Assembly: GCA_964508365.1 (NCBI GenBank)
Contig: CAZDTP010000070.1
Span: forward strand, 1-16,794
Length of the DNA stretch: 16,794 bases
Origin: an uncultured archaeon
GTDB lineage: Archaea; Asgardarchaeota; Lokiarchaeia; Sigyniarchaeales; SOKP01
Reading direction: 5' to 3'
Made by a program: the position numbers and the translations under genes. Of this stretch, positions 1-16,794 are shown one piece after another. The notes beneath the pieces were generated by a model, which was not told the origin of the DNA, did no database searches, and saw only the letters and a list, made by a program, of their open reading frames with translations. Every line of letters starts with the position of its first letter. Within the stretch, counting starts at the first letter, position 1.

Positions 1-429
1 TATTCGATTTTTGGTTAGTTAAATCAATGATTCATTGAAATTATTATAAATATATGAAACCTTGACAAAATTTTTATTAATCCTATTATAAACCGTTAAT
101 GCTGTCATGATTTAAATTATAAATTCTCCTCAATTTCTACACTATTTATTTTAAAATTATATTTTTTAGCAAAATTTGCATAATAATAAAAATCATCGTC
201 CTTTTTTTCCTTGGAATATTAAGAATTACCACTTTAAATAAACCTAGATTTTTCTTAACAACATTGTATATTAAACTCCTTATAAAATTATCGACTTTAA
301 AATAGAGATTTTATTTTTATTCAAAATTAATATTAAATTTTATGAACTAAGAATCGACTTAATAGAGTCGTATATGAAATTTTTAAGAAGAAAAATTTCC
401 CTTTTTGTGTGTGGATAAATAGTAAATAT

Positions 430-457
430 TTAGTTAATTTTTTACAAAATTAACTAA
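430..457. terminator. Perfect 12-bp inverted repeat (TTAGTTAATTTT-ttac-AAAATTAACTAA); possible terminator or protein-binding site
   Basis: Arms 430-441 and 446-457 are exact reverse complements. The hairpin overlaps the minus-strand stop codon (450-452) of the gene-tail remnant. It is very AT-rich, so the stem is weak. Confidence 0.4.
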
Positions 458-497
458 TTTGATAAAAATTTTCTTCAAATTCAGGTTTATCTTCATA
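450..497 (-). pseudogene. Isolated 3'-end remnant of a DUF362-like gene (YEDKPEFEENFYQIS*), tail B
   Basis: The minus-strand translation matches the C-terminus of the 4536-4859 fragment (YEGKPEFEEKFF*II*) and the remnant at 4483-4533. It has 38/48 nt identity to 4483-4530. There is no upstream gene body. Confidence 0.75.
471..485 (+). repeat. 15-bp exact direct repeat TTCTTCAAATTCAGG (second copy 4504-4518, 4033 bp apart)
   Basis: Read directly from the sequence. It is the identical core of tails B and A. Confidence 0.9.
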
Positions 498-598
498 TTA
501 TAAGATTTAAATTTCACATTTCGGATACTTATCAAAAAGAAAATTTCAAAAATTAAAAAAAAATTAAGGTTTTACCTAAAAAATCAATAGTTCTTGGT

Positions 599-1225
599 TC
601 AAAAGCTCCTTGATTTTCCTTTCATATCGAAACTCGCTATAACCCCACTTCTATTCTTGAACTCCCAATTCCTTTCAAAATCTTTATAGTTCCAGAAATG
701 AGTGTTACAGATTTTTAAATCTGAAAGGTACATGCCGAATAGAGAATTTTCAAGTCTTTGAGGATTTTTTCCATCGAGTCCTGGAGTATAGGATAATTTC
801 ATTTCTCCGTAAGGCATAGTAATGTGGAAAGTATTTCCCTCTTGATTAAAATTAATATCCACATATTTTATTCCTAAAATTTTCGTTAGAATCATCCCAC
901 CAGGAATTTTATTAGTAAAAAACGGTTCTAAATATTTCCTTTGTTCGTCAGTAGTTTTATCGCTTATGTATAACCCTCCTTCTCCACCTTTAGTCAATAC
1001 ATCCGCAGCTTTATTAGAATATAAATCAATTACATGAATTGCCATTACACCGCCGATATCTACATTGCCTATTTTTCCTTCGTCATATTGGAATAATTGA
1101 AATGATTTACATGGAGTTTCTCTATCTCTTCCAAAATAATACGAACAATGCCCCTCTGAGGCGCATGCCTCATACCAACTACCTTTTGCACTCCAACTAA
1201 TTTTTTCTTTTACTTCTTTAGACAT
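599..1225 (-). CDS. DUF1326 family protein (putative metal-binding)
   Basis: 208 aa. The N-terminal W-x2-KG-x-WYEAC...C...PC...F-x-YDEGKIG-x-VDIGG pattern and C-terminal N-x-H-F-W...W-x-F-x-NRSG-x2-A-x-F pattern resemble DUF1326, recognised from memory rather than by search. Confidence 0.75.
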   Translation of the reverse strand: MSKEVKEKISWSAKGSWYEACASEGHCSYYFGRDRETPCKSFQLFQYDEGKIGNVDIGGVMAIHVIDLYSNKAADVLTKGGEGGLYISDKTTDEQRKYLEPFFTNKIPGGMILTKILGIKYVDINFNQEGNTFHITMPYGEMKLSYTPGLDGKNPQRLENSLFGMYLSDLKICNTHFWNYKDFERNWEFKNRSGVIASFDMKGKSRSF

Positions 1226-1614
1226 TCTTTTACCCTTCTATCTTTGCATATTTATAATTACTATATTATCTATCAAATGGAAAATAAAAATTTTCATAAG
1301 AAAAGAGTTTAAAATCATATTTAATGTTATTGACTCCTTTGTCTAAAGGTAGGCTTTAACGCATTTAATAGTTGTATTTAAAATTGTTTCTCATTTGAAA
1401 GATGTGAATAGAATAATTAGAAAAAAAGGATGAATTTCAAGATTGGTACGAGAATTCATGATCTTTATACGGAAGATTTCCACAGACTATTGAAACTTAA
1501 ATATAAAAGTAATAAGTACACAAATGGTGCCTTAATCGATTAAAAAGCAACTACGGTAAGTTTTATATTTAATTAAAAATTCATATTCTCAAATATAGAT
1601 CGAGGTCCTAATAT

Positions 1615-2556
1615 TTGAAAAATCCTATTATTCAGACTTTTGGGGTAACAAAAGTTTTTAAAGATGTTATAGCAGTCAATAAATTAGATTTAAAGGTTAC
1701 AGGGGGGATTTACGGACTCTTAGGACCTAATGGTGCTGGAAAAACCACCACTATAAAAATGATGATTGGTTCACTGTTTCCAACAGAAGGGCGTATAGAG
1801 CTGTTTGGACATGATATTCATGGGAAAGACAAAATGGATATCCAAAAACGTATTGGATATGTCCCTGAACATCCAACATATTTCCAGTCTATGACAGCAG
1901 AAAAATTACTTACTTATATCGGATCGGTTTTTCATATGCCAATCCAAGAAACCAAGAAAAAAATTAAAGAACTTCTTCGGCTTGTGGATTTATCTGATGC
2001 GAGAACACGTATTATCGCAAAATATTCTGCTGGAATGAAACAAAGAATAGGTATTGCTCAAGCTCTCATGAATGATCCTGAATTACTAATTTTAGATGAA
2101 ATTACTTCAAATCTGGATCCAGTTGGTCGGAATCAAATTATTGAACTTCTTAAGAATCTCAACAAGGAAGGTAAAACGATTTTTATTTCGACTCACATTT
2201 TACCTGAGATCCAAAAAATGAAAGCTGATTCTATAGCTATTATTGATCGTGGTCGTCTTATTATGGAGGGAAGTATCGATGAGTTAAATGACGAACTGAA
2301 AACTCAAGTAATCGTTATTAGCCCTAATCATAAACTGTTCCGAGAAGCTCTCTCATCTGTTGTTCCAAATATCACTGAAGAAGTAGATTCTCTTATACTT
2401 AATACTGATAAATTAGATGAAGTCTGGCAGATAATAGCGAATATTTCCCTTCAAAATAAAATTGTTATTAAGGAATTTCGATCTACTGGAATAGATATTG
2501 AACAAATCTTTATGAAAGCATTAAATTCTGAACAGCTTGGAGGGATAGAGAAATGA
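1615..2556 (+). CDS. ABC transporter ATP-binding protein (ABC-2/CcmA-like exporter)
   Basis: Walker A GPNGAGKTT, signature YSAGMKQR, Walker B ILDE, H-loop STHIL. TTG start. The stop overlaps the next start (ATGA, 2553-2556). Confidence 0.95.
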   Translation: MKNPIIQTFGVTKVFKDVIAVNKLDLKVTGGIYGLLGPNGAGKTTTIKMMIGSLFPTEGRIELFGHDIHGKDKMDIQKRIGYVPEHPTYFQSMTAEKLLTYIGSVFHMPIQETKKKIKELLRLVDLSDARTRIIAKYSAGMKQRIGIAQALMNDPELLILDEITSNLDPVGRNQIIELLKNLNKEGKTIFISTHILPEIQKMKADSIAIIDRGRLIMEGSIDELNDELKTQVIVISPNHKLFREALSSVVPNITEEVDSLILNTDKLDEVWQIIANISLQNKIVIKEFRSTGIDIEQIFMKALNSEQLGGIEK

Positions 2557-4439
2557 ATAATATAATTCAGAAGCTAAAGAAACTCAAATTACCTATTTTG
2601 ATCCTTAGCCTATTCATTGCTGCTGGCTTTATTATCCAATATACCATAATAAATGAAAATAAATCAGAAACTTTTTCGCAAGACTTTTCTACTCCGCTTC
2701 AAAATAGTATAACTTATGAAAGCGGAAATATTCTAATCGAGAACCAAACGATCTTAGAGGATATTATCATAAAGTTTACCGCAAGTGTCAGTGTAGTGAA
2801 CTCTACTCTACAAGGAAGCATCTACATGTTCAATATGGGGAATTTATTCATACTTCAAAAATCAAACATTACACAGAATTTAATCATATCAGATTTTTCA
2901 ACTCTTTTTATAGATAATTCAACAATTGGAGGTTCTATTGAATGTCGAGATACTACATCTATGGAACTCTTTGAATGCTACACTCCTACAACAACAGTTT
3001 GGAAATTTGATTATGCTAATATAATTCTAAATAGTAGTAATCTCGACACACTCAATGAATTTGGAATTGCTGGGAACATCCATGTTGTTAATTCTAAGAT
3101 TAATTTAGTATCGCTGAATGGATTGTCATCCTCACGTACGTATATTACAAATTCTAATATTCTCTTGTTAAATGATCTGGTGTTTCCATCAAATGTGATC
3201 ACAGGCCCATTTAGATTTGGCATTTTTACTTTCAATATTAGTTACTCTACTTCCGAAAGGATTATTAACCTCACATGGATAGGATGGGATAGCCCTATTA
3301 TAGATGGTTATCTTAACATTACATTTCAAATTTATTTCGATAACCAGTTTTATGCTAAAATTAATGGCTCTGGTTTTCATGATCAATATTCTAGTAGTTA
3401 TCAAATAGAAATATCTGATCCCGGCGAACATAATATAACTATTGTTTCCATTGACAGCATGGGTAATAAGTATTCATCAACAATTATTATTGAACTACTT
3501 ACCTATCCACCATTTCAATGGATACCTTTCTTTATACTTATAGCGGCAATTACAGGGTTGATCGCAGGAATGATAATTTGGATAAAGAGAAAACAAAACC
3601 GAGGTTATTTTAGTTCAATAGGAACAATTTTTAAAACCGAATTAGTCGCGGGTAAGAATAAACTTCTAATTTTTGCTATAACGAGCGCTGCTCCGGGAAT
3701 ATTACTATCTTTATCCTTCTGGGTAATAAATCATCTGGTAGGTTCGATTGCTTTTGATGGTATCAGAGACTTGATTAATATGTTCTTTAATATTTACATC
3801 TACTATTTTGGACTGATCTTCAGCATTAGTATAGGGGCAGGTTCAGTGGCTAACGATAAAAAGAATGGTTCATTGTCATGGTTTTTTAGTAAGCCTGTGA
3901 GACGGTGGGAATTTCTTTGGGGAAAAATTTTGGCCTTCATAGTAATGATTGTCATTACAATGATTTGTGTATCCATTTCATTTACATTAGGGTCGATATT
4001 TTATGTTGATCCCATCTATATTACAGATATATTATCCATAGGAGGATATATATTTCTTATCGGTCTTATAGCACTTCTCCCATTGACAGCTATCGTTGTT
4101 TTTTGCTCAAGCGTATTTAAAAAAGTTGGGCTTGCATATTTCGTTCCCATCTTGGTTTTTATGGCTATGCCTTCACTGATCAGCTTTCTCACGATCTTAG
4201 CAGGAAGTGATTGGCCACTTCTATTTTCCTTCACATATTATTTCGAGCAATTAGGAAAGGTTTGGATCTCAAATGTCGGAGGATTATTTGGTTCAATAGG
4301 AAGTTATGGGGGCCTTTTGGGAATAACTATTACACCTTTAACTCTTGATCCTATTACGATTATTCTAATTATGGTTGCTTTAACCATAATTTTCCTTAGC
4401 CTTGCGACCTTGATCTTCCAAAAACAAGATATTCCTTAA
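2553..4439 (+). CDS. ABC-2 type permease fused to an N-terminal ~290-aa extracellular beta-rich region
   Basis: Layout: N-terminal hydrophobic segment, long polar beta-type region with 11 N-x-S/T sequons, TM helix, then a permease with the DKKNGSLSWFFSKPVRRWEFLWGK motif and multiple TM helices. Translationally coupled to the ATPase. Confidence 0.85.
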   Translation: MNNIIQKLKKLKLPILILSLFIAAGFIIQYTIINENKSETFSQDFSTPLQNSITYESGNILIENQTILEDIIIKFTASVSVVNSTLQGSIYMFNMGNLFILQKSNITQNLIISDFSTLFIDNSTIGGSIECRDTTSMELFECYTPTTTVWKFDYANIILNSSNLDTLNEFGIAGNIHVVNSKINLVSLNGLSSSRTYITNSNILLLNDLVFPSNVITGPFRFGIFTFNISYSTSERIINLTWIGWDSPIIDGYLNITFQIYFDNQFYAKINGSGFHDQYSSSYQIEISDPGEHNITIVSIDSMGNKYSSTIIIELLTYPPFQWIPFFILIAAITGLIAGMIIWIKRKQNRGYFSSIGTIFKTELVAGKNKLLIFAITSAAPGILLSLSFWVINHLVGSIAFDGIRDLINMFFNIYIYYFGLIFSISIGAGSVANDKKNGSLSWFFSKPVRRWEFLWGKILAFIVMIVITMICVSISFTLGSIFYVDPIYITDILSIGGYIFLIGLIALLPLTAIVVFCSSVFKKVGLAYFVPILVFMAMPSLISFLTILAGSDWPLLFSFTYYFEQLGKVWISNVGGLFGSIGSYGGLLGITITPLTLDPITIILIMVALTIIFLSLATLIFQKQDIP

Positions 4440-4482
4440 AACCAAAGAAAGAATTGGAGAGAGATTTGAATATAAAAAAGAA

Positions 4483-4533
4483 TTAGATTACTTGATAAAA
4501 TTGTTCTTCAAATTCAGGCTTACCCTTATACTT
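4483..4533 (-). pseudogene. Isolated 3'-end remnant of a DUF362-like gene (KYKGKPEFEEQFYQVI*), tail A
   Basis: The minus-strand translation matches tail B and the tail of the adjacent plus-strand fragment. It is bounded upstream by TTATAA (4534-4539). Confidence 0.8.
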
Positions 4534-4837
4534 TTATAAAAAACGCTTGGAAAGGAGAACCTTTTGATAGTATTGAGTTCTTAAATGGTAAGATTATGGA
4601 ACCTAGTCCAGGAATGAATAAAACAGTTTTATTTGGAAAATGTCAATTTGAAAAAAATAAAGATCATCCATATATCAATGAGATGATCCCCATTAAAGGT
4701 TGTTCTCCGACCATGGAAGAGGTAAAAGAAGCGTTTAGTCAGATTGGAATTGAAATAGATCCGATGATAATTAAAAAAATCGACAAAGGAGTAGGAATTC
4801 TAATGAAAAAATACGAGGGAAAGCCTGAATTTGAAGA
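4505..4837. repeat. 17-bp exact inverted repeat (4505-4521 TCTTCAAATTCAGGCTT / 4821-4837 AAGCCTGAATTTGAAGA) flanking 299 bp
   Basis: Read directly from the sequence. Confidence 0.9.
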
Positions 4838-4859
4838 GAAGTTCTTTTAGATTATATAA
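4536..4859 (+). pseudogene. 5'-truncated C-terminal fragment of a DUF362-like Fe-S protein (includes ORF 4596-4850)
   Basis: The frame stays open upstream of the ATG and reads IKNAWKGEPFDSIEFLNGKIMEPSPGMNKTVLFGKC...KGCSP...KYEGKPEFEE. I recall this as the C-terminal extension of DUF362 proteins; it needs an HMM check. There is no N-terminal domain, and the TAG at 4848-4850 precedes the family-aligned TAA at 4857-4859. Confidence 0.6.
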
Positions 4860-4920
4860 AATCTATTATTTCTATTTTTTTTTAATAAATAATGTAAATA
4901 AATTTAGGAGTAATAAGCGA

Positions 4921-6042
4921 TTACCTCTTAAAATAATCTAACACCTTTTTCACACAACCGAATGAACTCTTTATCTTACTTACATCGCAAGAATAAGTCA
5001 TATTATATAAAACGATGTGTTTTAACCCGACATTAGCATAAGCTTCAATTTTCGATATAATCTCATCTGGCGTACCATGTAAAAAGGTTTCTTGGCATAA
5101 TTTTGAGGGAATTTTATCTAAAGCTTCAATCATTGTTTCACGGTTATACTGTGTAGGGATATAATCAAGAAGTCCATAAAAATTCTCGCCAAGGGGATGT
5201 GTAATTCCAAACTGTTTAAAATACTCATTTGATTGAAGAAGACAATAGTTCTTTACAAATGCTGTTTCTAACATTCTATCGCATTCACTATGATCTTCAT
5301 CAATAATAATATTGTGCCAAAGACCAGGAGTAATATCATTTGGATTTCTTCCTACTTTTTTAGCTGAATTCCGAATAGTATTAAGCTTTTCTTTATAAGT
5401 TGAGACATCAAAATTTGTCGGTAGCCATCCATCTGCTAATCTTCCTGTTAAATCACACATCTTAGGTCCATGTGCTGCGACCCATATGGGAGGATACTTT
5501 CCTTCTGTATAAGGTTTTATAGAAAGTACAGCATTTTTTAATTTCCAAAATTCGCCATCAAAGCTTACCTTTCCTTCATTTTCCCAAAGAAGTTTAATAA
5601 TTTTGATTGCTTCCTCTAATCTACTTACAGGTTTCTCCCATTTTATACCATAAGGAATAACATTTTCCCCTTCCCCTGTTCCGATACCAAGAATAGCACG
5701 TCCTTTTGAGATATGATCCAAAGTTATAAATGTTTGAGCAAGAATTGCTGGATGCCTTCTAAATGATTCAGTAACACTTGTACCCAGTTTCACTTTTTTA
5801 GTTACCCACGCTGCAATTGCAATCACAGAAGACACATCGTAAAAATCATGAGGGCTATTTTGAATATTAGACATTTGAATAAGATCGGGAGACCAGATTG
5901 ATTCGGGAATCCAACCCATTAGATGATCTGCAAACCATACTGAATCATATCCTGTTTCTTCTATCCTTTTAACAGTTTCAATTCCTCTGTCAAAGGGAGG
6001 GATGAAAGTCCCTTCTGTTCCGATTTTTATATCAAGATCCAT
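4921..6042 (-). CDS. LLM-class flavin/F420-dependent oxidoreductase (Rv2951c ketoreductase-like subgroup)
   Basis: Motifs DSVWFADHLMGW, RRHPAILAQ, GRAILGIGTGE...PYG, PPIWVAAHGPKM, GRLADGWLP and HPLG. Confidence 0.9.
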   Translation of the reverse strand: MDLDIKIGTEGTFIPPFDRGIETVKRIEETGYDSVWFADHLMGWIPESIWSPDLIQMSNIQNSPHDFYDVSSVIAIAAWVTKKVKLGTSVTESFRRHPAILAQTFITLDHISKGRAILGIGTGEGENVIPYGIKWEKPVSRLEEAIKIIKLLWENEGKVSFDGEFWKLKNAVLSIKPYTEGKYPPIWVAAHGPKMCDLTGRLADGWLPTNFDVSTYKEKLNTIRNSAKKVGRNPNDITPGLWHNIIIDEDHSECDRMLETAFVKNYCLLQSNEYFKQFGITHPLGENFYGLLDYIPTQYNRETMIEALDKIPSKLCQETFLHGTPDEIISKIEAYANVGLKHIVLYNMTYSCDVSKIKSSFGCVKKVLDYFKR

Positions 6043-6077
6043 CTTATCACTTTAATATATTTTATGAATACTTATAG

Positions 6078-6110
6078 AAATTCTAAAAATTTTATAAACC
6101 TATAGAATTT
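6078..6110. promoter_or_regulatory. Divergent promoter: palindromic TATA box TTTATAAA (6091-6098) centred in an 8-bp inverted repeat AAATTCTA/TAGAATTT
   Basis: Lies in the 159-bp gap between the divergent LLM genes. An AGGAG RBS-like motif at 6186-6190 precedes ATG 6202. Confidence 0.45.
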
Positions 6111-6201
6111 TTATACTTATTACAAACAAAATAAATAACAAATATGTTAGGACTAAAATTTCTAAAATTTAATGAGAAATTAAAAAGGAGATTGATTTAA
6201 A

Positions 6202-7248
6202 ATGAGATTTAGTTTTCATATTCCTGTACCGACTCCCCGGCTTGAATTAATGATTGAGGGTACAAAGAAAGCCGAAGAATGTGGGTTTTTTGGCGTTTTT
6301 TATGCTGATCATACAGTAATGCTACCCCCAGGCCCTGGAACTTGTTATGATGCATATTGTTTTTTAACTTCTTTAGCTATGGTGAGTAAAAACATCAAAT
6401 TATGCACTGGCGTATCTGATTGTCATCGTTTTCACCCTGCTCTAATGGCACATAAGGTTGCAACTTTAGATGTGATTTCTAATGGACGAGCGATGATTGG
6501 CATTGGGGCAGGTGAAGCAATGAATATTGATATGTATGGATTAAATCGGAATAGATCAGTGACTAAATTGAGAGAATATATTATTTTAATGAGAAAGTTT
6601 TGGACAAAGAAAAAGGTGAATGCAGATAGTGAATTCTGGGGAAAAATCAAGAATGCATATATTCAAATAAAACCTATTCAAGAAACGCCACCAATTTATG
6701 TTGCAGGTAATGGTCCAAAAACCCGTCAAATAACTGGAGAATTAGCTGATGGCTGGTATCCACTGTATCAACCTCCATGGGTTTTTAAAAAGAATGCAAA
6801 AGAGGTTATTGATGCAGCTAAAATAAGTGGTAGAGATCCCTCTAAAATTGATTTTGTATATGATTGTTTTGTAGCAATTGACGATGATGACCCTCAAAAA
6901 GCAATTGGGAGATGTGAATTTTTTAAGTCATCCTATGTATTAAATGCTTCAATTACAAATCAGGCATACCCCAATTTAAATATACCCGAAGATGTAAATG
7001 TACACAATTTTGAAATGACTACTGAAGGCGTTTCAGAACAATTACAATATTTAGATAAACTACCTGATTCAGTTCTTCAAGATTTTAATTGTTTAGGTAC
7101 AACCGAAGATGTAATCGCTAGTATCGAAGAATATAAAAAAGCGGGAGTAAACAATTTAAGTATTATGAATAGAGGTCCGGATCCAAATAAAGTATATGAG
7201 ATTTTTAGAGATAAAATTATACCATATTTTAATGATATGGAAACATAA
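6202..7248 (+). CDS. LLM-class flavin/F420-dependent oxidoreductase (Mer-like)
   Basis: Motifs YADH, HPALMAHKVATLDVISNGRAMIGIGAGE, PPIYVAGNGPKT and GELADGW. An RBS-like motif lies upstream. Confidence 0.9.
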   Translation: MRFSFHIPVPTPRLELMIEGTKKAEECGFFGVFYADHTVMLPPGPGTCYDAYCFLTSLAMVSKNIKLCTGVSDCHRFHPALMAHKVATLDVISNGRAMIGIGAGEAMNIDMYGLNRNRSVTKLREYIILMRKFWTKKKVNADSEFWGKIKNAYIQIKPIQETPPIYVAGNGPKTRQITGELADGWYPLYQPPWVFKKNAKEVIDAAKISGRDPSKIDFVYDCFVAIDDDDPQKAIGRCEFFKSSYVLNASITNQAYPNLNIPEDVNVHNFEMTTEGVSEQLQYLDKLPDSVLQDFNCLGTTEDVIASIEEYKKAGVNNLSIMNRGPDPNKVYEIFRDKIIPYFNDMET

Positions 7249-7251
7249 AAA

Positions 7252-7271
7252 TTTTTTTATTTTTCTTTTTT
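7252..7271 (+). terminator. T-rich archaeal-type terminator
   Basis: Oligo-T tracts immediately follow the TAA of 6202-7248. Confidence 0.45.
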
Positions 7272-7287
7272 CTCTTGAAATTAATTC

Positions 7288-7392
7288 TTAAAAGAAAATC
7301 CCTTTCTTACGAGCAAAATATTTAACTATTTTAAAAGATACGTTACAGATTAGCGAAATTAAAAAACACACCAACCAATCAAACGTTTTAAG
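7288..7392 (-). pseudogene. Isolated 3'-end remnant of a P-type ATPase gene (LKTFDWLVCFLISLICNVSFKIVKYFARKKGIFF*)
   Basis: 23/34 aa identical to the C-terminus of 8798-11659 (LTGLDWLVCFLISLICIVSFEFIKYMARRSGIYF*), with the same length to the stop codon and many synonymous changes. Confidence 0.9.
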
Positions 7393-7412
7393 TTACATTA
7401 ACTATTTTAAAA
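7322..7412 (+). repeat. 15-bp exact direct repeat TTAACTATTTTAAAA (7322-7336 and 7398-7412)
   Basis: Read directly from the sequence. The second copy sits at the boundary where ATPase similarity ends. Confidence 0.8.
7344..7365 (+). repeat. 22-bp exact direct repeat TACAGATTAGCGAAATTAAAAA (second copy 8854-8875, 1510 bp apart)
   Basis: Read directly from the sequence. It is the identical core shared by the remnant and the intact ATPase tail. Confidence 0.9.
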
Positions 7413-7451
7413 ATTAAATTGTTTTAGGAATAAGTTTTAAATTTACTTGGT

Positions 7452-7997
7452 TCACTCTCTTGGTTTCTCTTCCCAGTCTTCTCTTAGGATGGCCATGATG
7501 ATCTCGTCGTAATACTTGCCATTATGATACCTTGCTTGCCGTTTTCTTCCTTCTTCGACAAATCCAACTTTTTGATATGATTTGTAAGCACGAATATTAA
7601 ATTCGTAAACGATTAATTCGATCCTATTCATATTTAATGTGTTGAACCCATACTCTACCAACATTTCCATTGCTTCTGTTCCATATCCTTTGTTTTGATA
7701 TTCCTTTTCTCCGATAGTAATACCGCATGAACACGCTCTATTTTTGCTGTCTATGTTTTGAATGGCACAATTTCCAATGATTTTTTCAGGATCTTCCTGA
7801 TCCAATAAAAGAATTGAGAAATAAACACTATCTTCTTTGTGTTTGAGCGAATCGAACCATTCTTCTTCCCAATCTCGGGTCAATGGTTTATACATTATTA
7901 AGTATTGCGTAATCTCGGGGTCGTTAAACCAATTTAGAAAAATATCAATGTGTCTCCTTTCAAGAGGAGCAAATTTAATCCGCTTTCCTTTAATCAT
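7452..7997 (-). CDS. GNAT family N-acetyltransferase, RimJ/RimL-like
   Basis: Motifs IGEKEYQNKGYGTEAM, F-x2-LNMNRIEL-x-V-x2-FN-x-RA-x2-SY-x-KVGF-x2-EG-x2-R and G-x-YYD. Confidence 0.92.
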   Translation of the reverse strand: MIKGKRIKFAPLERRHIDIFLNWFNDPEITQYLIMYKPLTRDWEEEWFDSLKHKEDSVYFSILLLDQEDPEKIIGNCAIQNIDSKNRACSCGITIGEKEYQNKGYGTEAMEMLVEYGFNTLNMNRIELIVYEFNIRAYKSYQKVGFVEEGRKRQARYHNGKYYDEIIMAILREDWEEKPRE

Positions 7998-8081
7998 ATA
8001 TACTAAGATTTCTACAAATTTTAAAAAATTAACGGATAAAAACAGTACGATATAAAATAAAATGTTATTTTAATATTTTAG

Positions 8082-8695
8082 TTAAGGAGTACTTTTAACC
8101 CTCATCTCGTCTTTTTTAGGATAATGATATGAGATTAATCCTACAAAAGATGAAGAACTAAAAATTGTAATCCATTCAAATATGGGGATATAGAAAAATA
8201 GGAAAAGAATATTTATTGATGCCCAAACGATACCATAATAACCAATTATTCTCGGGAAATTAGCGTATTTTGTTAGAATAATTCCTCCAAATAGCATTGT
8301 TGGTAGTAGGATAATGAAAAATGTTAGAGACCAGAATAAATGTGCATCAAAGTTATCTTCTGAAAAAATTCCAATCATAATATCTGAGAAGGAAAGGAAT
8401 ATTCCACTTATTATCAGAAGTACCAAGAATATCTTGCCTTTCTCCATATTATTTAGTAATTTTCTCAGCCCTATAAAAAAATCATAAGAAAAGAACCTGT
8501 AAGAATGCATCCAATATTATATATGATTGCTCCATATGGATTAAGAATTGAATTCCCCAAATCACTTATCCAATGATTAATAGGATCAATAAGAGATAAA
8601 TTAAAAAAAGCAGATATACAGGTACAAATCAAATAAATACTAATCGCAATATAACCAATTAATGAAGAGTTAATCAAACTTTTATCAATTTTCAA
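8082..8695 (-). pseudogene. DUF998-like membrane protein split by a 1-nt deletion in a T7 tract (ORFs 8471-8695 and 8082-8510)
   Basis: The N-part has WISDLGNS...NP-x-GA-x-IYNIGCILTG. Adding one T at 8475-8481 gives ...TGSFLMIFFIGLRKLL... and a continuous 204-aa multi-TM protein. Confidence 0.75.
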
Positions 8696-8797
8696 TTATA
8701 GTCACCAAGATTATTATAATACTATATCTATTTATGTTTAAATCTGGAATATTATTAATGTGCTGTTAGGTGTAAGTTTTATAAATTATATAGGAGA

Positions 8798-11659
8798 TTA
8801 GAAGTATATTCCTGATCGTCTTGCCATGTATTTGATGAATTCGAAGGAAACTATACAGATTAGCGAAATTAAAAAGCATACTAACCAATCCAAACCTGTG
8901 AGGAACATAAATCTAAAATTTAAACCCCATTCAGCGAGTGTTACTTGGACTCCCGGAATATATATAAGTGCGAGAAACACGGCAAATAAACACCCAATTA
9001 GAACGTACATGAAACGGGTGCTGTCTTCTTTTATACTTCGAATTAACGATTTGTTTGGTCTCCGAATTTGTAAAATTAAAAACGATTCGCAGAAGTAAAT
9101 AGTTACCATTAACATTGTAAGAGTTTTAACTTCGTTCAGAGAAATTCCACTTCCATCTGGGAATGTAAGGGGAGAAAATAAATAAGCTTCGTTTAAATCT
9201 CCGAAATTGATAACAGAAACTTCAGGACCCAAAAGTGTCGTGAAATAAACGACGATCATACTAATCGCCAATAGAGCTCCAAAAATAAACAAAAGGACGA
9301 CTGTATTTTTAGATAATATCTCTTCCTCGTCATGGGGTGCCTGCTTCATTAAATCCTTAGAATTACGATCGAACGTGAGTATTAAACCCGGAAAAATGTG
9401 AACCGTTATCGAGAGGAAAATCCATTGGAAATAGAATGGGGGGTCTAAAAAGTAAGGGAAGTTCAAAATAACAGATAAAATAAATTGGACAATGCCTTCA
9501 AAAACATTTATGCAGATATAGAAAAATACCACTGCTCTGATGCGAGCAAAAATACCCCGTCCTTGTTCAATACCTGTAACGATTGATATAAAAGAATCGT
9601 CGCTAATTACCATATCACTCGCTTCTTTCGCAACATCAGTTCCTTGAATACCCATAGCTATTCCTGCATCTGCCATATTTAAAGCTAGAGCGTCGTTAAC
9701 CCCATCTCCAGTCATAGCTACAACTTGATTAGCTTCTTGGTATTTTTCGATTATATCCTGCTTATGCTCTGGAGATACTCTAGCAAACACTTTAATTTTT
9801 TGAAAATCATAAAACGATTTAACATTCTTTATTTCTTTACCTTCTAATACAATTTCGTCTTCGTTTTTAATAATAGAGATTTGCTGGGCGATAGCTCTCG
9901 CCGTGGTGGGCGAATCTCCAGTAATCATTACAACATCCACCCCAGCATTATGACATTGTTCAACGCTTTGTTTTACGCCTTCCCGAGGAGGATCATATAT
10001 CGTTACAAACCCAATATAAATCATATCCGACTCGCACAACTTTCTACTTTCCTCGTATTCTAGTGGAATTGTATCTAATTTGTTATAACATAAACTTAAA
10101 ATTCTATATCCCTGTCCTGCGTAGATATCTGAAATCTTTAAAACTTTATCTTTAATTTCGTCTGAAAATTCTAACTCTTGGTCTTTATATATGACTTTTT
10201 TGCATAATGGTATTAATATCTCACTTGCACCTTTGGTAAAAGAATAAAATTTACCCTCTTTTTTATAAACTTTAGTCATTCTTTTAACCTTAGAATCAAA
10301 AGGGTGCTCTTTAATATACTCAAAATCGTCTAGGAGATAATCACCCATTCCCTTTTGAAAGAGAACCATTAATGCACCTTCAGTAGGAGATCCAATTACA
10401 TTCCAATTCTGGATAGTTTTACCTGATATCTCGAGCTCGTTTTTGACTAAAGCAGAGTTATTGTTCAAGAACCCTGAAGTTAGAAGCAACTTGAGTTGAG
10501 GATAATCATCTATGTGTTTCACATATACAGAATTTTTCGGATCGTCAACTAATATTATATCTCCCTCAGGACTATAACCACTACCAGAAACCTTATATGT
10601 AGAACCATTTGTCCATACATGCTGGATGCTCATTTGATTTTTTGTTAAAGTCCCTGTTTTATCTGAACAGACTACACTTACTCGACCTAAACTGTCTACT
10701 GATGCAAGATTTCTGATGATGACACCATGATGTGCCATAGCTACAACGCCTGTCAACAAAATAATTGTTACAAGGAGGGGTATATTGATAGGTAGTAAAT
10801 CCATGGCAGAATTTAGACTTTTGACTATATCTAACTTACCTGTAGCGCCCCATAGAATCAAGAGAATAAAAAACCAAAAACCGATAACAATCAATCCTAG
10901 CCATTTACCAAAATTATTCATTTTTGCTCGAATTGGAATCTCGCTCGTTCCTGCGTCTTCTAAACCTTGTGATATTTTTCCTATTTCGGTATCCTTTCCC
11001 GTTTTTACTGTTATTGCCGTTGCATTGCCAGTAGTGATAAAAGTTCCGTAAAACACCATATTATGTCGTTCAGCGATAGATACATCATCGTTTTTTATTG
11101 CGGTTCCAATATAGACTTTTCTGACTGGCTCAGATTCTCCCGTTAAACTGGATTCGTTAACTTCTAGGTTTGAAGATTGAATAATTCTCCCATCAGCAGG
11201 TATTCGATCTCCTTGCTTAAGGACTAATAAGTCGCCAATAACTACATTTTTAGTTATAATATCATTTTTTTGACCATTCCTTATTACAGTGGTTGTAGGT
11301 GCAGTCATTTCTCGTAGTGCGTTTAATTTTTTTGTTGCTCGGTATTGCTGTATGATTGCTACAACACAATTGAGAGCTACTATCCCTAAGGTTAACACAA
11401 CGAATAATAATTGTCCTTCGCCCATTATGATTGCTGCTAAAAAAAGTATTAACGAGGCGAAAAGATAAATTACGATTAGCCAATTAAATAAGGGAGCGAG
11501 ATAAATTTTGATAAAACCTTTAGAAGCTTTCGGGATCTCGTTAAATCCGTAAAGTTCAAGTCGCTTTTGGGCTTCTTCATTTGTTAATCCTTTAGTTGAG
11601 TTCGTTTCAAATCTTTGATAGATTTGCTCTAACTCCATTTTATAGTAGACTTCTTCCAT
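8798..11659 (-). CDS. P-type ATPase, P2A-like scaffold with non-canonical transport site (M4 PINIP)
   Basis: Motifs LTGES, CSDKTGTLT, KGASE, MITGD, FARVSP-x-HK, TGDGVNDA and A-x-EA-x-DMV-x2-DD. About 10 TM helices. Confidence 0.95.
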   Translation of the reverse strand: MEEVYYKMELEQIYQRFETNSTKGLTNEEAQKRLELYGFNEIPKASKGFIKIYLAPLFNWLIVIYLFASLILFLAAIIMGEGQLLFVVLTLGIVALNCVVAIIQQYRATKKLNALREMTAPTTTVIRNGQKNDIITKNVVIGDLLVLKQGDRIPADGRIIQSSNLEVNESSLTGESEPVRKVYIGTAIKNDDVSIAERHNMVFYGTFITTGNATAITVKTGKDTEIGKISQGLEDAGTSEIPIRAKMNNFGKWLGLIVIGFWFFILLILWGATGKLDIVKSLNSAMDLLPINIPLLVTIILLTGVVAMAHHGVIIRNLASVDSLGRVSVVCSDKTGTLTKNQMSIQHVWTNGSTYKVSGSGYSPEGDIILVDDPKNSVYVKHIDDYPQLKLLLTSGFLNNNSALVKNELEISGKTIQNWNVIGSPTEGALMVLFQKGMGDYLLDDFEYIKEHPFDSKVKRMTKVYKKEGKFYSFTKGASEILIPLCKKVIYKDQELEFSDEIKDKVLKISDIYAGQGYRILSLCYNKLDTIPLEYEESRKLCESDMIYIGFVTIYDPPREGVKQSVEQCHNAGVDVVMITGDSPTTARAIAQQISIIKNEDEIVLEGKEIKNVKSFYDFQKIKVFARVSPEHKQDIIEKYQEANQVVAMTGDGVNDALALNMADAGIAMGIQGTDVAKEASDMVISDDSFISIVTGIEQGRGIFARIRAVVFFYICINVFEGIVQFILSVILNFPYFLDPPFYFQWIFLSITVHIFPGLILTFDRNSKDLMKQAPHDEEEILSKNTVVLLFIFGALLAISMIVVYFTTLLGPEVSVINFGDLNEAYLFSPLTFPDGSGISLNEVKTLTMLMVTIYFCESFLILQIRRPNKSLIRSIKEDSTRFMYVLIGCLFAVFLALIYIPGVQVTLAEWGLNFRFMFLTGLDWLVCFLISLICIVSFEFIKYMARRSGIYF

Positions 11660-11861
11660 TAGAAATTCTCCCGGGAATGAATATTATTTTTGATTTTATG
11701 ATAAAAAGTAATTATGATAAATACACTATAACAATTTTACTTTTTATTTTATAGTATTTTTATCTAGAAAAATTAGTAATGGAAAAATAAATTAGTATGC
11801 TTCAATTGAAAAAAAAAATTCTGCATTTGTGTAATAATACCTTTTTCTAATTTAAGACAAT

Positions 11862-14729
11862 TTAAAAAATTACATTTTTTCTTCTCGCTAAGTATTTAAA
11901 AAGCTCTATTCCAAGTAAACCTGGTAGCGCCATCAAAATACAGATTATCCAATCAGTGCTACTCAAAAAGAGAAAGTTGATTTGTAAATCTAAGCCAAAT
12001 TCTTCGTTCACATAATAATTAACATCTTTTGAAAATAAAACAAATAAAACGTGTAGGGCGAGCGTAAATAAGCTTATTACGAGTAGGGTTAACGAAAATT
12101 CGTTTTTAAGGCTTTTGATAAGTGATTTGTTAGGCCTTCTGAATGTCCAGATGAAGGTAGTTTCAACAATGTAAAGTGTGGTGATAAACATAGTTCTTGC
12201 TTTTTGTGCTAATAATTTGGGTTGTGTTGATCCAACTGGAATATAACTAATCGCAGGATTAAGATTCCACTCATTCAATGGGATAAAACCTTCTAATGTA
12301 AATTGAAGAGCTGCTACCAGTCCAATTCCCATTAAAAAAGCTTGTATTATTAGTAAAATCCACATATTCTTGTTTAAAAGCTGTTGTTCGTCTCGAGGTG
12401 GCTCTTTCATTACATCTGTGGGATGTTTATCAATAACTAACGCTAATGCTGGAAGTGAATGAACTATCGCGTAAATATAAATATGCTGCCACTCTGAGCT
12501 GAACAAATCAAATAATGGGACAAACTCATAAGCGAAAAAGATAACTGTTTCCATTAAATTTAAACAAATGAAAAAAAATATTATATTTCGAATTCTCGCA
12601 AATAAACCACGTCCAATTCTAACTCCTTTAACAATTGAAGTAAAGTCATCATCACTTACTACCATATCAGCGGTTTCTTTAGCAACGTCTGTTCCAGTAA
12701 TACCCATAGCAATACCCGCGTTAGCGAGTTTTAATGCTAATGCATCATTAATACCATCGCCTGTCATGGCGCATATATGACCTTGGGATTGATATTTTTC
12801 CACAATTATTTCCTTATCTGAAGGATTTACTCTAGCAAACACAGAAACTTTGTTAAATTCTTTAATACTCAATTTGGAGACCTCAGCTCCTTCTACAATT
12901 AAATCTCCCTCTTTATAAATTCTCATTTGCGACGCAATAGTCTTAGCTGTTGCAGGGTGATCGCCTGTGATCATAACGACCTTTATACCACCTGATTCAC
13001 ATTCTTCTACCGATTCTCTTACTCCAGGTCTGGGAGGGTCTAGAATAGATACATATCCTAAAAAAGTTAAATTATTTTCTACTTCCTCTCGTTTAAGATC
13101 ACCAATTTCTTCAAATTTCTTATAACCTATAGCTAAAGTTCGATATCCTTGGGTTGCTCGAGTTTGTATTTCTTTCAGTAGTTTTTCTTTTATATCATTA
13201 GTTAGAACATTTTCTTTACTATTTATTTCAATTATATTAGCGATTTTTAAGATTATTTCAGGAGCACCTTTTGAAAAGGCGATTTTATGAGAATTGTCTG
13301 TTTTAAGCTCGCATACAGTAGTCATTCTCTTAAATTCGGAGCTAAAAGAAAATTCCTGCAATATTTTATATTTATTTTTTATATCGTATGGTATATACCC
13401 TGCTTTTTCAGCTAAAACTAACAATGCAGCTTCGGTCGGTGAACCTAAAGCTTTTCTTACCGCTATTTCTTTTGAAGTTTTTAACTTCACCTTTACATCT
13501 TCATATACTAGTTTTGCATTATTATTTAACACACTTGAATCAACAAAAGTTAGAAAAGTGCTATTGTTGCGTAAATTCTGAATGTCTCCATTGATGAGAA
13601 TTTCACCCTCAGAATCATAACCCGAGCCTGTAACAGTATATTCCTTGTTATTTATCCAAAACCTCTCTACTGTCATCTCGTTTTTGCTAATTGTTCCCGT
13701 TTTGTCCGAGCAAATGACTGAAACACGTCCAAGAGATTCGATAGCTGATAGATTTTTGACTATTACGCCACTTTGAGCCATGTTAAGAACACCTGTAACA
13801 AGAACGAGGGTCGACAATAATGGAAGATTAATGGGCATAATACCCATTGATCTTAAGATTGAACTTGTAATTGCATGATTTATATTATTGCCAAAAAATA
13901 ATCCTTGCAATCCTAAGACACTAAATTTGTAGAATATTAGAATTATTAAATTAATAATTACAATCGTCCCAAGGATATATCCTAATCTATTAAGTTTTTT
14001 CCTAAGTGGAATATCCTCAATTGAACCCATCTCGTTAAGTTGATTCGAAATTTTACCAATCTCAGTATTTAATCCTGTTCCAGTGACAAGCGCTGTTCCT
14101 CTTCCAGTGTTTATATATGTTCCCATAAACACCATATTATTTTGTTTTTGGATTGGTAAATTCATTTCTTTTATGTTTTTATTGCTTTTTTCCACTGGCT
14201 CACTTTCCCCAGTTAATGGTGCTTCGTCAATGGTTAAGTTGATAAAGTTAATAATATGAGCATCCGCTCCAATCTTATCACCTTGTTCTAATATCATAAT
14301 ATCTCCTGGAACCAGTTCTTTTGTAGGTATTTCGAACTGAATACCATCTCTTAGAACAATGGATTTTAGAGCAGCAATTTGTCTTAGCGATTCCAATGCT
14401 TTTTGGGCTCTGAATTGTTGTGTGATAACCGTTATCGAATTTATTATTACTACAGTGAAAGTAATGATTGTCGAGGTTTGATCTCCCAGAATGAATACAA
14501 TAGCAGCGGAAATTATTAAAATTATGATTAAAAAATTGAAAATTGGTGCTAAATAGATTTTCCACAGAGATTTTTTAATTTTTGGTAGTTCATTATAGCC
14601 ATATTTGATAAATCTCTTTTCTATTTCAGAATTTTTCAAACCATTGTTAGAATCTGTTTGGAATTTTGAAATTAAATCGTCAATTGATTGGAAATATGAA
14701 TTATCAGAACGAGATTGTGTTTGATTCAT
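11862..14729 (-). CDS. P-type ATPase, P2A-like scaffold with non-canonical transport site (M4 PINLP)
   Basis: Motifs LTGES, CSDKTGT, KGAPE, MITGDH, FARV-x-P-x-DK and TGDGINDA. About 10 TM helices. Confidence 0.95.
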   Translation of the reverse strand: MNQTQSRSDNSYFQSIDDLISKFQTDSNNGLKNSEIEKRFIKYGYNELPKIKKSLWKIYLAPIFNFLIIILIISAAIVFILGDQTSTIITFTVVIINSITVITQQFRAQKALESLRQIAALKSIVLRDGIQFEIPTKELVPGDIMILEQGDKIGADAHIINFINLTIDEAPLTGESEPVEKSNKNIKEMNLPIQKQNNMVFMGTYINTGRGTALVTGTGLNTEIGKISNQLNEMGSIEDIPLRKKLNRLGYILGTIVIINLIILIFYKFSVLGLQGLFFGNNINHAITSSILRSMGIMPINLPLLSTLVLVTGVLNMAQSGVIVKNLSAIESLGRVSVICSDKTGTISKNEMTVERFWINNKEYTVTGSGYDSEGEILINGDIQNLRNNSTFLTFVDSSVLNNNAKLVYEDVKVKLKTSKEIAVRKALGSPTEAALLVLAEKAGYIPYDIKNKYKILQEFSFSSEFKRMTTVCELKTDNSHKIAFSKGAPEIILKIANIIEINSKENVLTNDIKEKLLKEIQTRATQGYRTLAIGYKKFEEIGDLKREEVENNLTFLGYVSILDPPRPGVRESVEECESGGIKVVMITGDHPATAKTIASQMRIYKEGDLIVEGAEVSKLSIKEFNKVSVFARVNPSDKEIIVEKYQSQGHICAMTGDGINDALALKLANAGIAMGITGTDVAKETADMVVSDDDFTSIVKGVRIGRGLFARIRNIIFFFICLNLMETVIFFAYEFVPLFDLFSSEWQHIYIYAIVHSLPALALVIDKHPTDVMKEPPRDEQQLLNKNMWILLIIQAFLMGIGLVAALQFTLEGFIPLNEWNLNPAISYIPVGSTQPKLLAQKARTMFITTLYIVETTFIWTFRRPNKSLIKSLKNEFSLTLLVISLFTLALHVLFVLFSKDVNYYVNEEFGLDLQINFLFLSSTDWIICILMALPGLLGIELFKYLARRKNVIF

Positions 14730-14828
14730 CTCAATATCTATCCCAACTTAACAACGCATTAGAATTTTATAAATATTGATTTAAACATTTATAATTATAT
14801 AATTTTTTCTCTAAAACTAAGTTATCTG

Positions 14829-15797
14829 TTATGATTGAATATTAAATTCTGATGGATCTCCTAATAAATATTTTAAGATGTGATATTTTTTTCTAATGGT
14901 CGTACTTGAAAATCTGCTTGTTTGTTCAACAATACTTTGAGTAAAAATCTTGCTATTATCTAAAGTTTGGCCAATATAGTAAATAAGTCCTGCAGTAAAA
15001 GCCTTGTAATTCATGTTTAAAATTTGCTGGTAATTTATTTTCTGCAAAATTTTATCTACTAATAGTTGCATTTCCAACTTTAATTTTATGTAATCTAATT
15101 CGCTTGAAAAGTGTTGTTCAACTCTTTGGTAAAGTATATTGTTTAAATCCTTCTGAAATAGAATTTTAATTTTATTTTTTATCTCTTCTTCTAGATTTAT
15201 AGCGTTTTTATAATCTTTTAACCTTTTATCCGTTCTTTTGACTTTTAGCATTGCATTGTTGAGCATCTTTTTGTTTATTTTATGTCCTAACTCTTTAGAC
15301 ACTTTGATGAAGTCTTCAATCCTCACATTTGTGGTTTCTTTTATTTCCATCCAAATGATTGCAAGAAAAATAATTACCATATTTTCATAAGTCTGTCTAT
15401 GATATTTGTTATATCGGAGATACTTGTCCTTTATTTCATTGTATTTAACATTGTCAATATTTAATCCAATACCATTATTTTTTAGCATGCTGATAGTTTT
15501 CTTTTGCTCCGTAAAACTATTCTGAGAATCATTAAACCATTTGGACAAAGTTTTAATTTGCTCAAAACGAGCTTTCGTTTTTGGATCTTGAATAGCTCTT
15601 GAGTCACTTATTCTTATTTTTCTTTCGTATTCTAATTGAGATTCTGTATAAAAGTCAGGTGGCGGAGTTTTCTCGAAAGCGATTTTATCTTTATCAATTA
15701 AACCACAATCTTGACAGACAAAATATCCACCCTCTTGCTTAACATTCTTGTGCTCACAATCGGAAATTTCTTTATTATTGCTATTCAAGAAGATCAC
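14829..15797 (-). CDS. Divergent TFIIB/TFB-like protein (Zn ribbon plus two cyclin-like repeats)
   Basis: C14-x-H16-x11-C28-x2-C31 ribbon. The C-terminal AGLIYY...TQ-x-IVEQTSRFSSTTIRKKYH-x-L resembles the TFB second repeat/HTH. GTG start. Confidence 0.7.
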   Translation of the reverse strand: MIFLNSNNKEISDCEHKNVKQEGGYFVCQDCGLIDKDKIAFEKTPPPDFYTESQLEYERKIRISDSRAIQDPKTKARFEQIKTLSKWFNDSQNSFTEQKKTISMLKNNGIGLNIDNVKYNEIKDKYLRYNKYHRQTYENMVIIFLAIIWMEIKETTNVRIEDFIKVSKELGHKINKKMLNNAMLKVKRTDKRLKDYKNAINLEEEIKNKIKILFQKDLNNILYQRVEQHFSSELDYIKLKLEMQLLVDKILQKINYQQILNMNYKAFTAGLIYYIGQTLDNSKIFTQSIVEQTSRFSSTTIRKKYHILKYLLGDPSEFNIQS

Positions 15798-15961
15798 AAT
15801 GAATTAATCTAATTATAATCTATCATATCTATTCAAAAAAAGTATTAATCTTTAATTTATAAATATAGCATAAAAAAAACCATCAAATTAAATATTATAT
15901 AAAAGATTTAAAAGAAAATAATGAGTATAAAATATAACTAGAAAAAAACGAGCGATTAGTC

Positions 15962-16534
15962 ATGGAGCGTAGAGTTGTAATAAAATGGTTAAAAATCTTT
16001 AGTATTGGCTTTCTTATTCTTACCCTAGTTGGTTTAGTTGATCTCATTTTGATGAGTACAATTATTAATATAACTTTAGATAGCCAGCTATTTAATATTC
16101 TAACGATAATTTTTCAATCAGGCTTTATGTCTGTTCACGCAGCTTTATTATGGATTGTTTTACTCAGTATCTTTTGTGGCTTTATTGTTTTATCATACTC
16201 AATTTTTAATGTTGCTAATAAAAACACCATCGAAGATAGAATTCTTGCTAAATTTTTATTGCTTATCGGTTTATTTCTAATTATTGGCGGTTTTATTACT
16301 ATGAATTTCATAGTTCTATTAGGCAATAGTCATATCAATACTGGTATAACTTATATTACATTCCAAACCGCACTATTCTCGCCTTCGATTACTTCTGTTA
16401 TTGGAGCAATTATGTGGTTCTATAACACTGTTATGGTTTCTTGTTTCTTAACCTCTGGTTTAATTTTTGGCGGAATTGGTCTTAAATGGATGCTACTTAT
16501 CCAAGAGGAAGAATCCACTAATAATCAAATCTAA
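15962..16534 (+). CDS. Hypothetical membrane protein (~4 TM)
   Basis: 190-aa ORF with four hydrophobic segments and a short acidic tail. No family recognised. Confidence 0.8.
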   Translation: MERRVVIKWLKIFSIGFLILTLVGLVDLILMSTIINITLDSQLFNILTIIFQSGFMSVHAALLWIVLLSIFCGFIVLSYSIFNVANKNTIEDRILAKFLLLIGLFLIIGGFITMNFIVLLGNSHINTGITYITFQTALFSPSITSVIGAIMWFYNTVMVSCFLTSGLIFGGIGLKWMLLIQEEESTNNQI

Positions 16535-16644
16535 TTTTTAACTTAATTATTCAGATTCTTAAAATAAATAAAAACAGTATCAAAGGATTTTGAAATCTGA
16601 ATCTTAATGATCTGTGACTTATTCTATTTAGTTTTACATCTTAA

Positions 16645-16794
16645 TTAATATTTGGAGGATTTAATTTTATATAATCTGATTTCTAGATCGTTTACCGCTA
16701 AATTTATTAGAAAGAAGTGATTATATTTATATTTGCCTCCAAGCAATATATTTCCAAATTTAGTTAAGATATCTGGAGTTAAATCACTTCTTTC
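16645..16794 (-). CDS. 3' end of a gene continuing beyond the window (...ERSDLTPDILTKFGNILLGGKYKYNHFFLINLAVNDLEIRLYKIKSSKY*)
   Basis: 49 uninterrupted codons from the window edge to a TAA, in DNA AT-rich enough that stops are frequent. Convergent with 15962-16534. Confidence 0.6.
   Translation of the reverse strand, partial: ERSDLTPDILTKFGNILLGGKYKYNHFFLINLAVNDLEIRLYKIKSSKY

Follow-up and report, generated by a model that had tools for sequence, protein, structure and literature searches.

Tandem P2-like ATPases with a rebuilt ion site in an uncultured Lokiarchaeon: candidates for transport of a cation other than Ca2+

The locus described here raises the question of what a P-type ATPase might transport when the Glu of the PEGLP motif in its fourth membrane helix (M4) has been exchanged for a hydrophobic residue, while the remainder of the enzyme is to all appearances in working order. 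Two such pumps, here termed P0001 and P0002, are encoded in tandem on a 16,794-nucleotide stretch of DNA from an uncultured archaeon of the Lokiarchaeia (Sigyniarchaeales; SOKP01), which was analysed at its full length and is referred to as the window (GenBank assembly GCA_964508365.1, contig CAZDTP010000070.1, positions 1 to 16,794 of the forward strand). On balance, we lean towards regarding them as two paralogs of an ancient P2-like ATPase subfamily that is essentially specific to Asgard archaea and whose rebuilt transport site would serve a single small inorganic cation that is not Ca2+. It seems that the subfamily has not been described before, as a literature search on Asgard P-type ATPases returned only one transporter survey and the signature was found described nowhere. 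Transport sites are what define the classes of P-type ATPases, and a class P6 has been proposed on a single substitution in helix M6 (PMC10654040). The two genes and their principal motifs lie in the window as follows.

8798..11659, minus strand: P0001, the downstream pump (PINIP sub-clade), 953 amino acids (aa), an intact open reading frame (ORF) with five Pfam domains
11862..14729, minus strand: P0002, the upstream pump (PINLP sub-clade), 955 aa, an intact ORF with five Pfam domains
10778..10792, minus strand: M4 motif PINIP of P0001, residues 290-294
13821..13835, minus strand: M4 motif PINLP of P0002, residues 299-303
10649..10663, minus strand: phosphorylation motif DKTGT of P0001
13692..13706, minus strand: phosphorylation motif DKTGT of P0002
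11132-11143, minus strand: TGES of P0001, residues 173-176
14202-14213, minus strand: TGES of P0002, residues 173-176

Neither translation is interrupted by a stop codon, and the two proteins, which are encoded on the same strand, are 41% identical over their full length. The motifs KGA, TGD and GDG[VI]ND are also found in both, and the M4 Pro lies 43 residues upstream of the Asp of DKTGT in P0001 and P0002 alike. The full set of five Pfam domains expected of a P2-type (type II) pump, including Cation_ATPase_N, E1-E2, HAD and Cation_ATPase_C, is found in each, together with the ten transmembrane helices by which members of the P-type superfamily are recognised, and the superfamily model TIGR01494 scores the pumps at 266-296 bits (cut-off 62). 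An AlphaFold2 prediction for P0001, built on a 72-row alignment, reached a predicted local distance difference test score (pLDDT) of 87.4 and a predicted template modelling score (pTM) of 0.83. The machinery of phosphorylation and dephosphorylation and the ten-helix P2 fold are thus intact in both pumps, and an initial annotation of this DNA had proposed that catalysis is intact. That annotation also read the A-domain motif as TGES rather than the DGET of P4 flippases, and TGES is indeed present in both proteins, with TGE[S/x] across the family. Its placement of PINIP and PINLP at the PEGLP position likewise proved exact, both in coordinates and in falling in the alignment column of the PE[GSA]L of conventional pumps.

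To define the family signature, 108 family members were aligned with 102 PE-type pumps using MAFFT, and positions were related to Listeria LMCA1 through a HMMER alignment. I291 of P0001 aligns with E309 of SERCA and N292 with G310 (I300 and N301 in P0002), and in all 102 PE pumps the Pro of PE[GSA]L falls in the PINIP column and is followed by Glu. The composition of the ion-site columns is given below (P0001 position, SERCA residue; family n=108, PE pumps n=102), followed by the corresponding segments in the window.

291, E309: family I86, L9, V6, F5, W2; PE pumps E102
292, G310: family N105; PE pumps G91
750, N796: family variable (F36, S21, Y18, V14, T9); PE pumps N96
754, D800: family H107; PE pumps D94
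718, N768: family N102; PE pumps N95
721, E771: family E108; PE pumps E96
858, E908: family E99; PE pumps Q54, E41

9398..9412, minus strand: M6 of P0001, S750-I-T-V-H754, with H754 in place of D800 and S750 in place of N796
12459..12473, minus strand: M6 of P0002, Y753-A-I-V-H757
9497..9508, minus strand: M5 of P0001, N718..E721, in which the N768 and E771 equivalents are kept
12549..12560, minus strand: M5 of P0002, N724..E727
9086..9088, minus strand: M8 of P0001, E858, the E908 equivalent
12162..12164, minus strand: M8 of P0002, E856

Judged from these columns, the M4 substitution is one part of a coupled, family-wide change to the transport site. Ca2+ site II has been dismantled, with E309 turned hydrophobic, N796 free to vary and D800 exchanged for His, and the space vacated by its ligands is likely to be occupied by a hydrophobic side chain; the initial annotation, which proposed a non-Ca2+ or non-ionic cargo, is supported insofar as the Ca2+ site is gone. 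The ligands of site I, namely the M5 Asn and Glu and the M8 Glu, are kept, and an invariant Asn has been added to them on the unwound stretch of M4. The net charge of the site is lowered, since two carboxylates and a His stand where there had been four carboxylates. Further positions are fixed in the family (P56, N59, Q105, I241, R326, N399, L658 and R867), of which I241 replaces the Thr of TPLQ and L658 turns GDGVNDAP into GDGVNDAL, and the funnel through which Ca2+ enters from the cytoplasm has lost its acidic character, E109 being Q (Q105 of P0001), D59 being N and Q56 being P.

The distribution of this signature is the second element of our argument. Among 1.84 billion database representatives at 50% identity, approximately 35 clusters carry P-[ILVFW]-[NS]-[ILF]-[PVI], extending down to about 36% identity, with PEGLP pumps lower in the ranking. 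The named sequences among the 120 closest database relatives (71-100% identity) come from Lokiarchaeota, Promethearchaeota, Thor-, Heimdall-, Hod- and Hermodarchaeota, and every named family representative is Asgard, in keeping with the Lokiarchaeal host and with the Asgard origin that the initial annotation had raised as a possibility. The pattern search for taxonomic range that it recommended was carried out at the DNA level with P-[ILVFM]-N-[ILVFM]-x37-C-[ST]-DKTGT against one genome per species (185,579 species), and returned at least 119 loci. Nearly all are Asgard: 114 of the 119 matches listed belong to Asgard or unclassified archaeal metagenome-assembled genomes (MAGs), and the cultured Promethearchaeum syntrophicum MK-D1 and Lokiarchaeum ossiferum are found among the matches listed. 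The remaining five matches listed bear other labels (three Bathyarchaeota, one Methanomethylicus and one 'Aerophobetes bacterium' contig). The three Bathyarchaeota contigs and the Methanomethylicus contig (L033, L096, L099, L120) form one well-supported group with Atabeyarchaeum, and these members represent either lateral transfer out of Asgard archaea or mislabelled MAGs. The PINIP pump on NJBP01000013.1 ('Candidatus Aerophobetes bacterium Ae_b3b', L026) sits inside the Lokiarchaeial PINIP clade with a branch length of 0.24, and this contig probably reflects misbinning of Asgard DNA and not a transfer.

Within the Asgard phylum, the pattern occurs in 264 of 399 genomes and in 64 of the 90 that are of high quality, while a reversed control pattern gave no match in the same 399. 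Given that the two paralogs are only 41% identical, that the motif class is present in 108 of 108 members and that the control was silent where 264 genomes matched, the M4 change is not a matter of chance or decay, and the earlier contention that sequence decay or error is unlikely is upheld. The taxonomic family of the window's own genome holds the pattern in 122 of 134 genomes, mostly as two matches about 3 kb apart on one strand; both genes share a strand in 16 of 16 pair-holding loci, and the PINLP-type gene lies upstream in the pair loci checked, as it does in the window. In several Asgard families the pattern is missing altogether, also when relaxed, and some Asgard genomes hold 3-5 copies. 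Three genomes from the order of the window's genome (G135, G136 and G137) have 4-5 matches each, drawn from the PINIP, PINLP, PVNIP and P[FL]NFP sub-clades, which is a local expansion of the family.

Phylogenetic analysis recovers the family as a monophyletic group, both with FastTree (support 99; 136 rows) and with IQ-TREE (100 in the Shimodaira-Hasegawa-like approximate likelihood ratio test, SH-aLRT; stem length 0.39; 79 rows). These trees were built with eukaryotic P3, P4 and P5 references left out and without a P2B, P2D or P3 reference set. When rooted with a P1B outgroup, FastTree places the family in a basal polytomy beside all PE pumps, and IQ-TREE places it as sister to a SERCA-type representative with weak support (83). 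P0001 and P0002 fall into different sub-clades in both trees: the PINLP sub-clade includes sequences of Helarchaeota and Lokiarchaeia, the PINIP sub-clade includes those of Thor, Odin, Heimdall, Hod, Borr and Atabey archaea, and the other sub-clades are marked by P[FVL]NFP (including MK-D1), PW[NS]FP and PIN[IL][VI].

Among the known classes, the P2A Ca2+-ATPases (LMCA1, SPCA1/PMR1, SERCA and the prokaryotic PEGL pumps) are the closest. They have the same domain order, ten-helix fold and catalytic motifs, share the M5 N..E and the M8 Glu with the family, and provide its best matches by sequence (E 2e-122), by hidden Markov model (HMM) and by fold (Z 34). They differ from it in M4, where P-phi-N-phi-P stands in place of PEGLP, and in M6, where the family reads x...[TVSA]-H and P2A reads N..T-D. 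Membership in P2A by motif and score was rejected, there being no PEGL Glu (hydrophobic in 108/108), no M6 Asn (S in P0001, Y in P0002, variable in the family), no M6 Asp (His in 107/108) and no score above cut-off. Every curated NCBIfam subfamily (equivalog) model in fact falls below its cut-off for family members; the highest-scoring are those of class IIA, with 421-521 bits, on which ordinary PEGL pumps reach 595-726 bits. On TIGR01116 (cut-off 703.4) and TIGR01522 (cut-off 798.3), P0001 scores 423 and 468 bits, P0002 441 and 468, and other members 396-521. The models for P4 (TIGR01652, cut-off 431.25), P5 (TIGR01657, cut-off 618) and P3A (TIGR01647, cut-off 615.5) give the family 86-147, 205-251 and 310-346 bits, respectively, and ordinary PEGL pumps 86-116, 208-274 and 408-487. 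Because these scores are no better than those of ordinary PEGL pumps, a special affinity of the family to P3A, P4 or P5 is not indicated. The best 60 sequence matches in the PDB are P2A and P2C pumps along with PfATP4, with no P4 or P5 chain among them. Fold matches at Z 30-34 comprise LMCA1, SPCA1, PfATP4, ACA8, PMCA, SERCA, Pma1 and the Na/K and H/K pumps, the closest being LMCA1, SPCA1 and SERCA; the best 50 (Foldseek, VIA) contain neither P4 nor P5 entries, where absence from the list does not exclude similarity.

Likenesses to the more remote classes are confined to particular features. The P3A proton pumps (AHA2, Pma1) also have a hydrophobic Ile/Val after the M4 Pro, the frame there being P-I-x-x-P (GGIPIAMP, which defines the plant P3A-I pumps; PMC9708826). 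They too pump cations through a single site and bury few charges, and Pma1 is among the fold matches at Z 31. Their M6 Asp is the proton acceptor (PMC10654040), whereas the family has His in that column, and P3A membership was rejected on this residue and on the TIGR01647 score. The P6 class, proposed for CtpE of Mycobacterium with the expectation that more prokaryotic families will follow, is similarly a prokaryotic branch in which the otherwise omnipresent M6 Asp has been replaced (PMC10654040). However, CtpE (compared here by its published description) is bacterial, keeps PEGL and has Ile in M6, whereas the Asgard family has lost PEGL and has His in M6, and membership in P6 was rejected on these grounds. 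P5 was rejected as well, its M4 reading PP(E/A)LP as opposed to the PIN[IL]P found here and the TIGR01657 score lying far below the cut-off.

The gene content of the host provides some further bearing on the cargo. Of the five P-type ATPases encoded in the window's genome (4.07 Mb, 100% complete by marker genes), two are CPC heavy-metal pumps, one is a canonical PEGL pump and the others are P0001 and P0002. In the canonical pump (G000:C76:7187-10042 (+)), M4 has PEGLV where PEGLP is usual and M6 has NIATDGIPA. The pumps with the rebuilt site therefore stand beside an ordinary Ca2+-type pump and not in its place. Its closest representative, P0258, scores 595-598 bits, below both of the Ca2+-pump equivalog cut-offs.

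It is reasonable to postulate that these pumps still cycle between E1 and E2 and would occlude one small inorganic cation other than Ca2+. The predicted pocket consists of N292, N718, E721, H754 and E858 (P0001), with the hydrophobic M4 side chain sealing the former site II. A His, two carboxylates and amide oxygens constitute a typical coordination of borderline divalent metals, and chiefly for this reason our favoured, albeit tentative, candidate for the cargo is such an ion (Mn2+, Fe2+, Co2+, Ni2+ or Zn2+). The preference is strengthened by the genome's PEGL pump and two CPC pumps, with which export of Ca2+ and of Cu/Zn-type metals is already covered, and by the 3-5 copies of the family in some genomes, since multiple copies per genome are usual for metal pumps. 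The tandem copies probably differ from one another in cargo or affinity, because their second-shell residues differ (S750/Y753, I755/S758 and C857/V855 in P0001 and P0002, respectively).

A number of points weigh against this reading. The cargo assignment draws on residue chemistry, and the five-residue pocket on the alignment rather than on model coordinates. No metal regulator, chaperone or metal-binding domain adjoins the pump genes in the window or in the related loci. Loss of the acidic cytoplasmic funnel could mean that the cargo is bound from outside, as in uptake, or that it is a proton. Last, the position of the family relative to P2A is that of a basal polytomy or of a weakly nested branch depending on the tree.

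The proposal that survives best beside a borderline metal is that of a monovalent pump, importing K+ (bound from outside in E2P, as by the Na/K and H/K pumps) or exporting H+, and although we consider it doubtful it is nearly as likely as the metal. Protonated H754 would here give the site a positive charge of its own to counter E721 and E858, after the manner of the Lys/Arg of H/K and P3A pumps. The reduction in site charge and the neutralised funnel are both consistent with such a cargo, as is the Ile/Val that P3 proton pumps have after the M4 Pro. In addition, neither TrkH, Kup and KdpA nor an Ion_trans_2 K+ channel turned up in a profile search of the host genome. This gap is phylum-wide, however: TrkH, Kup and KdpA were each found in 0 of 57 Asgard genomes from 23 families, in searches in which the control genomes matched as expected (TrkH/KtrB, Kup, KdpA), and Asgard archaea, as represented by these 57 genomes, appear to be without Trk, Kup and Kdp. 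Ion_trans_2 K+ channels occur in 12 of the 57 (9 of 32 with the pump family and 3 of 25 without it), so that 22 of the 25 genomes lacking the pumps lack K+ channels also. As the gap does not track the pump family, it lends no specific support to K+ as the cargo. Furthermore, K+ prefers oxygen ligands, and an invariant His would be an unusual ligand for it. As regards H+, the M6 Asp that is the proton acceptor of P3A pumps is exactly the residue that has been lost, and the P3A model remains at 310-346 bits against its cut-off of 615.5.

That the family still pumps Ca2+, or another hard divalent ion such as Mg2+, through a single modified site is what database annotation would imply, and we think it improbable. 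Relatives are named 'Ca2+-transporting ATPase' in their sources, the closest solved relatives are Ca2+ pumps, the site-I residues N768, E771 and E908 are retained, and the Asgard transporter survey, which covered five proteomes, listed putative Ca2+ ATPases in each of them (PMC7997004). Those database names are automatic, however, and E309, N796 and D800 are replaced in essentially every member. The Ca2+-pump equivalog models TIGR01116 and TIGR01522 score members far below their cut-offs, and the same genome has a separate canonical PEGL...NIATDG pump. The annotation of the family as Ca2+ pumps is thus probably wrong.

The initial annotation itself had seen in PINIP and PINLP a hydrophobic gate like that of the P4 flippases, and had suggested a non-ionic cargo and a tie, by convergence or by descent, to the transition from P2 to P4. 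The observation stands insofar as P4 pumps (ATP8A2, Drs2) do have an Ile, that of PISL, at the position of the PEGL Glu (PMC4937031). As a gate it is not diagnostic, because P3 pumps such as AHA2 carry Ile/Val there also (PMC4937031), and for the same reason a hydrophobic residue at the E309 position is compatible with the pumping of cations. The loss of the site II Ca2+ ligands could be viewed in the light of a lipid, amphipathic or organic cargo, and the host belongs to the nearest prokaryotic relatives known for eukaryotes, to which P4 pumps are otherwise confined (PMC10654040). Even so, a flippase-like pump strikes us as very unlikely. The A domain has TGES and not DGET, M4 reads P-I-N-I-P where P4 pumps have P-I-S-L, and the strongly constrained pair of buried Glu residues, the invariant His and the two Asn that the family retains look like a polar ion site rather than a lipid groove, which speaks against the non-ionic cargo. 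With respect to a link to the origin of P4, the P4 model scores the family much as it does PEGL pumps (86-147 and 86-116 bits; cut-off 431.25), the sequence and fold rankings offer no P4 affinity (no P4 chain in the best 60 and best 50, respectively), and FastTree and IQ-TREE alike put the family together with the PE-type pumps. CDC50 (PF03381) had no match in the genome, but it had none in the control genomes either, and P4B pumps need no CDC50. On present evidence, the family does not inform the origin of lipid flippases. Least probable of all is a new top-level Asgard-only family with a cargo unprecedented among P2 pumps (such as a cation of organic nature, or a molecule that is amphipathic or resembles a lipid), which in its strongest form would be the prokaryotic stem of P4 or P5.

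The question of cargo reaches beyond this locus. The clade is present in about two-thirds of the sampled Asgard genomes, the cultured MK-D1 and Lokiarchaeum ossiferum included, and its annotation is everywhere that of a Ca2+ pump, yet three canonical Ca2+ ligands have been replaced. Claims about how the closest relatives of eukaryotes use Ca2+ in signalling draw on that annotation. If the transported ion were identified, a very well-studied enzyme family would gain a new specificity class and such inferences would be corrected, and the result could bear on metal or K+ handling in Asgard archaea, given the apparent absence of Trk, Kup and Kdp.

The genes that flank the pump pair are listed below.

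14829..15797, minus strand: zinc-ribbon, TFB-like ORF, 322 aa, co-oriented with the pump pair and 99 bp upstream of it
7452-7997, minus strand: GNAT acetyltransferase, downstream and co-oriented, in 21 related loci
15962-16534, plus strand: multi-pass membrane ORF, 190 aa, no family match, divergent, upstream in 22 loci

The 322-aa ORF has an N-terminal C-x-H...C-x2-C zinc ribbon, and its sole Pfam match is a weak one to the TFIIB zinc ribbon (E 0.032, below the cut-off). In 25 related loci a homologous ORF is found in the same position, directly upstream and co-oriented, at a median distance of 96 bp, and the protein may be a dedicated regulator of the pump pair. The conservation of the GNAT gene and of the membrane ORF may be plain synteny among close relatives. 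Together, the TFB-like ORF, the GNAT gene and the small membrane protein hold no metal or ion clue to function.

Elsewhere in the window, two divergent luciferase-like monooxygenase genes lie at 4921-6042 (minus strand) and 6202-7248 (plus strand), with Pfam Bac_luciferase matches at E 7e-70 and 2e-50, respectively. Further upstream are genes for an ABC ATPase and for an ABC-2 permease whose N-terminal extracellular part is large, together with a DUF1326 gene.

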